From: Candidatus Omnitrophota bacterium
GTDB lineage: Bacteria > Omnitrophota > Gorgyraeia > Tantalellales > Tantalellaceae
Reading direction: 5' to 3'
Assembly (NCBI GenBank): GCA_028715965.1
Contig: JAQUQS010000004.1
Coordinates: 1 to 59,962, forward strand
Length of the DNA stretch: 59,962 nucleotides
Shown here piece by piece: positions 37,448-53,686 of this stretch. The notes under the pieces are model-generated. The model was not told where the DNA came from. It worked only from the letters and a program-made list of their open reading frames with translations, and did not search any database. The translations under genes were made by a program, and so were the position numbers. The number at the start of each line of letters is the position of its first letter. Positions within the stretch are counted from its first letter, which is position 1.

Positions 37448-37523
37448 TGGTGGAGCTGAGGGGGATCAAACCCCTAACCTCCTGATTGCGAACCAGGCGC
37501 TCTATCAATTGAGCTACAGCCCC
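37448..37523 (-). tRNA. tRNA-Ala(CGC)
   Basis: 76-nt cloverleaf GGGGCTG...CAGCTCC-ACCA, G3-U70 pair, anticodon loop TTCGCAA, encoded CCA. Confidence 0.95.
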
Positions 37524-37572
37524 ACCGAAATGTGAGAACATTATAACATAAAAAAATTTTTCGTAAATAATA

Positions 37573-37783: not shown

Positions 37784-39292
37784 ATGGTCATAAGAGCGGT
37801 CCTATGTATGTGTGTTACGGTCGTTTTTCTGTCGGGCGGAACCGTTCACGCAAAGAACGCCGATCTTGCCGGTAGCTGGTATACGGATTCCCCGGCATTT
37901 CTCAAAAAAGAGCTGGATACCTATATGTCCCAGGCGGATGTGCAGGATGTGGATGGCGAGGTCTACGCTGTTCTTGTTCCGCACGCGGGACTTAAGTTCT
38001 CCGGTCCGGTTGCGGCGTACGCGTATAAATTGCTCCAGAAAGCGGGCCCGGAAGTTGTTATAGTCGTTGGTTTCACGCACAGGCTTTTCGCCCCGGGTAC
38101 CATAGCGGTCCTTGACGATGATCGTATCGTTACGCCTTTGGGGGATATCGAGATCGATAAGGAGTTAACAGGGAAGCTCATATCGTCCGGCCCGAAATTC
38201 ATCGGCAGTAAAGATATTTTTGATTCCGAGAATTCCATTGAGATGCAGTTCCCGTTCATAAAACACGCGTTACCTGGCACCAAGGCGGTCTTCGTCGCCA
38301 TGGAAGACCAGGGACTGAAGAGCTGTGAGTCCCTGATCAACGCGTTATATGATGTTATCAAGGGCTCGGAGAAGAAGATGATCGTGATAGCGTCCAGCGA
38401 TATGAGCCATTATCTGCCATATGATGTGGGAGATAAGATAGACGCTATGACCACAGAGGTGATCCGGCAAATGGACCCTGCAAAGTTCTACGGGTTCAAT
38501 ATGCTCAATGAACAGCAGCTGATGTGTGGTTATGGGGCCGCGTACACCGTGATGTCACTGGCAAAGCAGCTTGGCGCGAATAAATTCCTTGTATTGGAAC
38601 GAGCTAATTCCGGGGACACATCAGGAGTAAAGGAAAAGGTGGTGGGATATTTGAGCGGGGCATTTGTGCGAGTGGCGGAAGACAAGGTCGCGGACCCGGT
38701 GGCGGTGGTCTCGATACAGGATAAGGCGGAGGGGGGAGATATGCTTAACGCGGGCGAGAGAAAAGAGCTTTTAAAGATAGCCAGGGATTCCATAGGGCAT
38801 TACCTCAAGACAGGGCGCCGCTATGAGCCCGTGGTCGATGACGCTGATCTGGGGGAGGAGATGGGGGCGTTTGTCACACTTCACGAGAATGGTGAGCTTC
38901 GGGGATGTATCGGGAATATGATGGCCCGGGGGCCACTTTATCTTACGGTCAGGGATATGGCGGTTGCGGCGGCTACGGAGGACCCACGTTTCCACGCGGT
39001 CAAAGAGGGGGAGCTTGCGGCCATTGATATCGAGATATCCGTGCTATCTCCCCTGCGTAAGGTGGCCAGTGCTGATGAGGTCGAGGTAGGGAAACATGGT
39101 GTGCTGGTGCGTATGGGGCCAAGGAGCGGTGTATATCTTCCGCAGGTGGCTACGGAGACCGGATGGGGTAAGGAAGAGTTCATGAACAGTCTCTGCGGAC
39201 AGAAGGCCGGGATACCGTATGACGCTTGGAAGACGGGGAAATGCGAGATATACGTTTTTACCGCGGAAGTTTTTGGTGAAAAACAAGAATGA
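37784..39292 (+). CDS. AmmeMemoRadiSam protein B (MEMO) - protein A (AMMECR1) fusion
   Basis: AGSWY, PHAG, ENSIEMQ, ASSDMSHY, CG (MEMO); GAFVTL, LRGCIG, DPRF, EISVLSP, YLPQVA (AMMECR1). Confidence 0.92.
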   Translation: MVIRAVLCMCVTVVFLSGGTVHAKNADLAGSWYTDSPAFLKKELDTYMSQADVQDVDGEVYAVLVPHAGLKFSGPVAAYAYKLLQKAGPEVVIVVGFTHRLFAPGTIAVLDDDRIVTPLGDIEIDKELTGKLISSGPKFIGSKDIFDSENSIEMQFPFIKHALPGTKAVFVAMEDQGLKSCESLINALYDVIKGSEKKMIVIASSDMSHYLPYDVGDKIDAMTTEVIRQMDPAKFYGFNMLNEQQLMCGYGAAYTVMSLAKQLGANKFLVLERANSGDTSGVKEKVVGYLSGAFVRVAEDKVADPVAVVSIQDKAEGGDMLNAGERKELLKIARDSIGHYLKTGRRYEPVVDDADLGEEMGAFVTLHENGELRGCIGNMMARGPLYLTVRDMAVAAATEDPRFHAVKEGELAAIDIEISVLSPLRKVASADEVEVGKHGVLVRMGPRSGVYLPQVATETGWGKEEFMNSLCGQKAGIPYDAWKTGKCEIYVFTAEVFGEKQE

Positions 39293-51827: not shown

Positions 51828-51904
51828 GGGGGCATAGCTCAAGTGGTTAGAGCAACTGACTCATAATCAGTAGGTTCATGGTTCAAGTCCATGTGCCCCC
51901 ACCA
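51828..51904 (+). tRNA. tRNA with CAT anticodon (probably Ile2; elongator Met not excluded)
   Basis: 77-nt cloverleaf, GACTCATAATC anticodon arm as in E. coli ileX; paired 1-72 and no GGG/CCC stem, so not an initiator. Confidence 0.9.
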
Positions 51905-52016: not shown

Positions 52017-52093
52017 GGGCGCATAGCTCAGCTGGTTAGAGCGCATGCCTCACATGCATGAGGTCGGAGGTTCGAGTCCCCCTGCGCCCACCA
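52017..52093 (+). tRNA. tRNA-Val(CAC)
   Basis: 77-nt cloverleaf, anticodon loop CTCACAT, encoded CCA. Confidence 0.95.
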
Positions 52094-53253: not shown

Positions 53254-53620
53254 ATTGGAACAGGCTGTGTGACCGCGCTTTGTACTTTGTACATTGTGAG
53301 GAAAGTCCGGGCTCCACATAGCAGCGTAGCGGGTAATACCCGTCCATCGCAAGATGAGGATCAGAGCCACAGAGACGAGTCCCTGGTCTTAGATGCCTGG
53401 CATCCTGAGGTCAGGGGGTGAAACGCGGCAATCTCTACGCGGAGCAAGGCCAAATAGGGGAGGAACTTTGTATGCGCGGATCACCGCGCGTGCTGGTCAC
53501 GAAGCTGCTAGTTTCGTCAAACTCCCGGGTAGGCTGCAAGAGGCTGTTAGTGATAATAGCCCCAGATGGATGGTCACAGGGCATATGCCTACAGAACCCG
53601 GCTTATAGGCCTGTTCCAAT
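53254..53620 (+). ncRNA. rnpB: RNase P RNA (type A)
   Basis: GAGGAAAGTCCGGGCTCC, GGGTGAAACG, GAGCAAGGCCAAATA, ACAGAACCCGGCTTA; terminal P1 ATTGGAACAGGC/GCCTGTTCCAAT. Confidence 0.97.
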
Positions 53621-53686
53621 TACTTTACCTGTCAGATATATTCCTAAGTCCCGGCCTTGGCAGATCATCCTGAAAGAGGAGATAAT

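Follow-up and report, generated by a model that had tools for sequence, protein, structure and literature searches.

In the tRNA-Ala(CGC) gene of this Candidatus Omnitrophota genome, the outermost tertiary pair of the tRNA elbow reads A19-U56 in place of G19-C56, with both partners replaced. The gene is another case of a known recurrent tRNA variant and not a new kind of tRNA. An A-U pair is isosteric with a G-C pair and is weaker, having one hydrogen bond fewer. Judged from the gene and its relatives, the product is probably a working alanine tRNA in which the exchange has kept both the shape of the molecule and the way its elbow is read. The gene lies in a stretch of 59,962 nucleotides (the window) from a 71-contig draft genome that is 99.67% complete, and the features that bear on it are collected in Table 1.

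Table 1. Features of the tRNA-Ala(CGC) gene and of its surroundings in the window.
Feature	Position	Strand	Evidence or detail
tRNA-Ala(CGC) gene, 76 nt, CCA encoded	37448..37523	-	ARAGORN; Rfam RF00005; cloverleaf MFE fold
G3-U70	37521/37454	-	
A15, partner of U48	37509	-	
G18, D-loop	37506	-	Gapless homology
A19, D-loop	37505	-	Sequence; gapless comparison of 12 orthologues; G in other 11/11
Anticodon CGC (positions 34-36), reads GCG	37488..37490	-	ARAGORN and sequence
U48, pairs with A15	37476	-	Orthologue comparison; state unique to this gene
U56, T-loop, Watson-Crick partner of A19	37468	-	Sequence; C in other 11/11 family orthologues
Promoter-like site TTTACG-16 nt-TATAAT, TG before the -10 hexamer (TG-n-TATAAT)	37540..37567	-	Consensus scan, 10/12 matches
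502-aa fusion adjoining the tRNA gene	37784-39292	+	Memo-like domain (26-292) and AMMECR1 domain (330-497); syntenic in sister genera
tRNA-Met(CAU)	51828-51904	+	Canonical GG and UUC elbow
tRNA-Val(CAC)	52017-52093	+	Canonical GG and UUC elbow
RNase P RNA, type A (standard)	53257-53621	+	226 bits

The ARAGORN call, tRNA-Ala(cgc), coincides with both ends of the gene on the minus strand, the Rfam model RF00005 gives it 65.6 bits where the gathering score is 29, and the minimum-free-energy fold of that strand is a cloverleaf. The acceptor stem (GGGGCUG/CAGCUCC) is accompanied by U8 and A9, the D-arm has a GCUC/GAGC stem and the loop AAUUGAUA with G18 and A19, and a single base, written as G, stands between the D-stem and the anticodon stem (GAGC G CCUGG). 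The anticodon arm reads CCUGG-UUCGCAA-UCAGG and the variable loop AGGUU. The T-arm combines an AGGGG/CCCCU stem, with four G-C pairs, and the loop UUUGAUC, which contains U56, and it is followed by CAGCUCC, A73 and CCA. All alanine identity elements are present (G3-U70, A73 and the anticodon CGC), the encoded CCA is intact, and the core bases U8, A14, G18, U33, G53-C61, U54, U55 and A58 are kept. The 19-56 pair is Watson-Crick without being G-C, falls inside the bacterial R19/Y56 consensus and occurs with G18 and U55 retained, the combination that characterizes the A19-U56 elbow variant. The compensated pair and the intact G3-U70, A73 and CCA that the earlier note had described are thereby confirmed. 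The promoter-like site, a pattern match alone, ends 16 nt upstream of the mature 5' end.

The ancestral state of the elbow is provided by sister genera. The gene was compared with 11 syntenic orthologues (L002-L012) from other genera of the same family, all of 76 nt and aligned without gaps. Their positional orthology is indicated by the neighbouring genes that recur beside the tRNA in the orthologous loci, namely a 233-aa ORF, an 89-aa ORF, a 100-aa ORF, a small zinc-ribbon protein and the Memo-AMMECR1 fusion. The orthologues, of which L002 is closest at 95% identity, resemble the window gene in length, in the acceptor, anticodon and T stems, in the anticodon loop and in the flanking genes, and they differ from it in having G19, C56 and C48 where it has A19, U56 and U48. 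Column 18 is G in 12/12 sequences, whereas column 19 is G in 11/12 and A solely in the window gene. The survey of Ala(CGC) orthologues that the earlier note had proposed gives a uniform picture: all 11 keep G19 and C56, and among these sequences A19 and U56 are confined to the window gene.

Exactly three states, A19, U48 and U56, are private to the window gene among the 12 sequences. All three are partners in tertiary pairs, both affected pairs (19-56 and 15-48) end up matched, and the stem pairs, tertiary pairs and invariant bases are all intact. L002 shares A15 and U20 with the window gene, but its A15 still faces C48; U48 restores the matched 15-48 (Levitt) pair with A15. The 15-48 pair is thus a second compensated tertiary pair in this tRNA, besides 19-56. 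Metagenome contigs searched with a pattern specific to this lineage, in which positions 19, 48 and 56 were free, yielded no intermediate or closer relative.

Placing three random substitutions on the inferred ancestor indicates how seldom such an outcome would arise by chance, with results that vary with the transition bias. Of the simulated trials, 0.04-0.09%, fewer than 1 in 1,000, produced a Watson-Crick swap at 19-56, and 0.3-1.7% produced a molecule with every pair intact. Given the rarity of the 19-56 swap in these trials, there is good evidence, at the level of sequence, that selection maintains the shape of this tRNA.

The setting of the gene in its genome is consistent with this conclusion. 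It is the sole alanine tRNA of the genome with C34, and GCG is the commonest alanine codon in the long ORFs, at 38% of alanine codons. Across the family, an Ala(CGC) tRNA occurs in 23/24 sampled genomes. The earlier claim of a functional tRNA under selection is supported by the matched 19-56 and 15-48 pairs, the identity elements, the promoter-like site, the synteny and the use of GCG, and the gene looks functional, with no appearance of a pseudogene. The sampled family genomes show two distinct sequence types of tRNA-Ala(CGC), with anticodon stems CCUGG/UCAGG and UCACG/CGUGG (L281, L282), both called tRNA-Ala(CGC) by ARAGORN and both with G3-U70 in the acceptor stem. Each genome seems to carry one type, and one genome has two copies of the UCACG/CGUGG type.

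These observations suggest a simple history, in which the genome's working decoder of GCG would first have changed C56 to U, passing through a tolerated G-U intermediate at 19-56, and then G19 to A, which would give the isosteric A19-U56 as the outermost elbow pair. The change of C48 to U would likewise have restored a matched A15-U48 pair. Since A19-U56 is isosteric with G19-C56, the L-shape and the flat stacking face presented to RNase P, the L1 stalk and other elbow readers would be preserved, with the loss of one hydrogen bond. Such a tRNA is probably expressed, charged and recognized as before, although the weaker A-U pair may make the elbow somewhat less stable or have a slight effect on kinetics.

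The same exchange recurs widely in bacteria, with its two partners closely linked. We scanned one genome per prokaryote species for the same D-arm class (an 8-nt D-loop with a GCUC/GAGC stem), with G18-A19 fixed and position 56 free; in this and the related scans the counts are of genes and ignore phylogeny. Among the 119 A19 matches listed, 118 have U56 and one has C56. Conversely, metagenome contigs scanned with U56 fixed and position 19 free yielded 112 tRNAs, 101 with A19, 11 with G19 and none with C or U. The pattern of the genome scan, applied to a sample of 401 genomes from the window's own phylum, found a G18-A19 tRNA in 14, with U56 in 14/14. A19 and U56 are thus almost perfectly coupled in bacteria, with some G19-U56 intermediates and next to no A19-C56. 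The 11 G19-U56 cases are as expected for a route in which C56 changed to U56, giving a G-U wobble, and G19 then became A19.

Of the 119 matches listed, 68 are Gly(UCC), mostly from Bacteroidota, 24 Ala(CGC), 18 Gly(GCC), 6 Thr, 1 Lys and 1 Gly(CCC). The Gly(UCC) tRNAs of Bacteroidota, and the Gly(GCC) tRNAs of some Clostridia and Bdellovibrionota, share with the window gene both the matched swap and the D-arm context and differ in the amino acid. Since these glycine tRNAs span many genera and families, the swap looks old and fixed in those lineages. Among the 14 cases of the phylum sample the window's genome is the only one with Ala(CGC), the other 13 being Thr(UGU), a CAU-anticodon tRNA and one Gly(UCC). 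The Thr(UGU) of three other genera of the family (L271-L273; G290, G003, G102) has A19-U56 with the D-loop AGCUGAUA and the T-loop UUUGAUU/C, and that of the window's genome has a canonical elbow. The CAU-anticodon tRNA of nine sampled genomes of the same class (L275-L280 and three more) has A19-U56 together with A57 and the T-loop UUUAA.

The closest counterparts of the window gene belong to the same isoacceptor. Among the matches listed, Ala(CGC) genes with A19-U56 come from Saccharibacteria, Peregrinibacteria, Peribacteria, Opitutae-type Verrucomicrobia, 'Candidatus Enterousia' and other Alphaproteobacteria, and a Clostridia MAG, and so from at least four phyla besides the window's own. Those of Opitutae, Saccharibacteria, Peregrinibacteria/Peribacteria, 'Candidatus Enterousia' and the Clostridia MAG share with the window gene an 8-nt D-loop ending in GAUA, a T-loop of the form UUUGA/UUUAA, G3-U70, A73 and CCA. 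They differ in retaining G15-C48, where the window gene has A15-U48, and in being common to several species, whereas the form in the window was seen in one genome. Their stems are unrelated, which marks them as independent origins of the swap. Three variant genomes were examined, and none has an Ala(CGC) match other than the A19-U56 gene. Opitutae-type Verrucomicrobia carry the swap in several genera in the genome scan (Opitutus, Lacunisphaera and unnamed MAGs), which implies that it can persist over long periods. In a class-level sample of Opitutia, drawn around one genome, it occurs in 3/72 Ala(CGC) genes, whose nearest kin keep G19-C56. Taken over the genes compared, the A19-U56 swap is rare per gene and clearly recurrent.

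A link with position 20 was considered and found weak. U20 accompanies A19-U56 in 117/118 tRNAs of the genome scan (among the matches listed) and in 98/101 of the metagenome tRNAs, every Ala(CGC) case included, while canonical alanine tRNA genes (CGC, GGC) from the family and class mostly have G20 or A20. The U20 share of 97-99% in the variants nevertheless compares with about 90% in controls of the same D-arm class.

Published work places this recurrence within known bacterial variation. The elements listed as 'strictly present' in bacteria by the tRNomics survey of Marck and Grosjean (2002), in the portion quoted in PMC3372374 (2012), include R19 and Y56, whereas G19 and C56 stand in the archaeal and eukaryal lists. 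As quoted there, this is a general consensus that covers A19 and U56 and leaves the tRNA types unspecified, but it implies that both bases have been on record in bacterial tRNAs for two decades. The near-universality of G19-C56 asserted in the earlier note overstates the rarity of the swap, in view of the R19/Y56 consensus and the wide recurrence. Among the papers searched, none uses the term 'A19-U56' and none treats '19-56' with 'covariation'.

Experimental counterparts also exist. An engineered G19A/C56U pre-tRNA-Gly of Thermus thermophilus carries the same double substitution, designed to keep the tertiary Watson-Crick pair, and is cleaved by Arabidopsis PRORP3, a protein-only RNase P, with approximately wild-type kinetics (kreact 1.78 versus 1.67 per min; KM 7.7 versus 4.8 nM) (PMC4797305). 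That substrate is artificial and was assayed with PRORP3 only, whereas the window's genome encodes an RNA-based RNase P. RNA-based RNase P recognizes the 19-56 pair by base stacking (PMC10941002), and in the L1 stalk the G2112-A2169 pair stacks on G19-C56 (PMC5309774). An isosteric A-U pair should keep the stacking surface that both readers use. T-box recognition of this elbow does not apply, as no RF00230 match was found in the genome. The proposal in the earlier note that elbow recognition is altered is therefore not sustained: the new pair is isosteric, its readers stack on the pair, the double mutant behaves much like the wild type with PRORP3, and there is no T-box match.

A variant of that proposal would have A19-U56 selected because it changes how the tRNA is read or modified, through C56-dependent T-loop modification, release from the ribosomal E site by the L1 stalk, or thermal stability. 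Some observations point in this direction. Ala(CGC) accounts for 24/119 A19-U56 tRNAs among the matches listed, from at least four phyla, and for 11/112 in the metagenomes, whereas Ala(UGC) and Ala(GGC) contribute none among the matches listed and other C34 isoacceptors with the same D-arm 0-1. C56 is also given as a determinant of m5U54 2-thiolation in Thermus (review PMC7912444), so that its loss could affect modification, and on a substrate reduced to a minimal T-arm C56U alone gives an approximately five-fold higher KM for PRORP3 (PMC4797305). Against this, the excess of Ala(CGC) consists of raw counts that ignore phylogeny and are limited to 8-nt D-loops with a GCUC/GAGC stem, and the swap also occurs in Gly, Thr, Lys, Met/Ile2, Val and Pro tRNAs, which speaks against an alanine-specific role. 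Only a single tRNA of the genome has the swap, the RNase P RNA of the genome is of standard type, no T-box match was found, and the full-length double mutant is processed like the wild type. The T-loop modification enzymes of the genome include TruB and a U5-methyltransferase family match that is ambiguous between the tRNA and rRNA enzymes; TrmFO was not found above the cut-off. We consider adaptive retuning unlikely on this balance. It is similarly doubtful that A19-U56 has been repeatedly selected in Ala(CGC) in particular, arising independently in at least five phyla and almost never in Ala(UGC) or Ala(GGC) of the sampled D-arm class. If it has, a softer elbow or the lost C56 modification determinant could tune the maturation of this GCG decoder, minor but heavily used, or its release from the ribosome.

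A shift of register, with the lone D-loop G acting as G19 in a G-U wobble with U56, U at position 18 and the elbow degraded, is very improbable. The D-loop does contain only one G, and in yeast SUP4oc the guanosines of the D-loop are able to slip functionally onto adjacent positions (PMC4117946). Yet the 12 orthologues align without gaps and the G of column 18 is invariant. A G pairing with position 56 would moreover favour C56, whereas U56 accompanies A19 in nearly every match listed in the genome scan and is seldom found with GG (11/112 metagenome tRNAs).

Comparably remote is a gene that is non-functional or artefactual, whether a decaying redundant tRNA or an error of assembly or consensus in the MAG. 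Ala(UGC) could read GCG by wobble, the draft is fragmented, and all three private changes are G-to-A or C-to-T transitions. The stems, identity elements and invariant bases are nevertheless intact, each change affects a partner in a tertiary pair and both pairs come out matched, the promoter-like site is present and the gene neighbourhood conserved, and nearly all sampled family genomes have an Ala(CGC) tRNA. The flanking gene order recurs on a Logan contig of SRR22315506 (look-up of flanking proteins), and proteins identical to those flanking the gene are found on two further contigs of public assemblies. The earlier exclusion of a sequencing error is upheld in a softer form: such an error is very unlikely, as two errors would have to fall on both partners of one pair.

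Special tRNA-Gly genes of Staphylococcus are set aside for Fem-type cross-bridge synthesis in the cell wall; their hallmarks are a D-loop that has lost G18-G19, a T-stem of reduced strength and the presence of a Fem-type transferase in the same genome. Fem-type and lipid-alanylation transferases use Gly, Ala, Thr and Lys, which are also the commonest amino acids of A19-U56 tRNAs among the matches listed. A comparable reservation of the window's tRNA for cross-bridge synthesis or lipid alanylation is scarcely credible and was rejected, given that the genome has no FemAB (PF02388) or LPG_synthase_C (PF09924) match, that the gene keeps G18, U54, U55 and a strong G-C T-stem, and that it is the sole C34 alanine tRNA for the commonest alanine codon.

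A conservative replacement of G19-C56 by A19-U56 in a working tRNA therefore stays the preferred reading. This tRNA-Ala(CGC) matters little alone, but it is a natural and clean illustration of compensatory change at two tertiary pairs, 19-56 and 15-48, and sister genera preserve the ancestral state. It may be useful in teaching, or as a matched pair in biophysical work on elbow stability. For annotation pipelines, A19 and U56 in a bacterial tRNA should not mark a pseudogene. The apparent excess of Ala(CGC) among A19-U56 tRNAs is the only part that might hide novelty, and the broader pattern of coupling and intermediates may merit a full survey.

The remaining tRNAs of the genome include a second unusual elbow of a different type. 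Among the 44 other ARAGORN calls, one of them a likely false positive, no real tRNA combines A19 with U56, and all have a GG D-loop and a UUC T-loop except tRNA-Cys. The probable false positive is a 93-nt 'tRNA-Phe(aaa)' on another contig (C20:10512-10604) without a canonical D-loop or T-loop. The tRNA-Cys(GCA) gene lies outside the window (C7:82581-82654, minus strand). Its D-loop, AGUAGAUA, has a single G, and in its T-loop, UGCGAUU, G55 replaces U55 and C56 is retained, so that the elbow looks like an A18/G55 type with G19-C56. In a comparison of D-loops, the form AGNAGNUA of this tRNA-Cys was found in 14/15 sampled genomes of the family.
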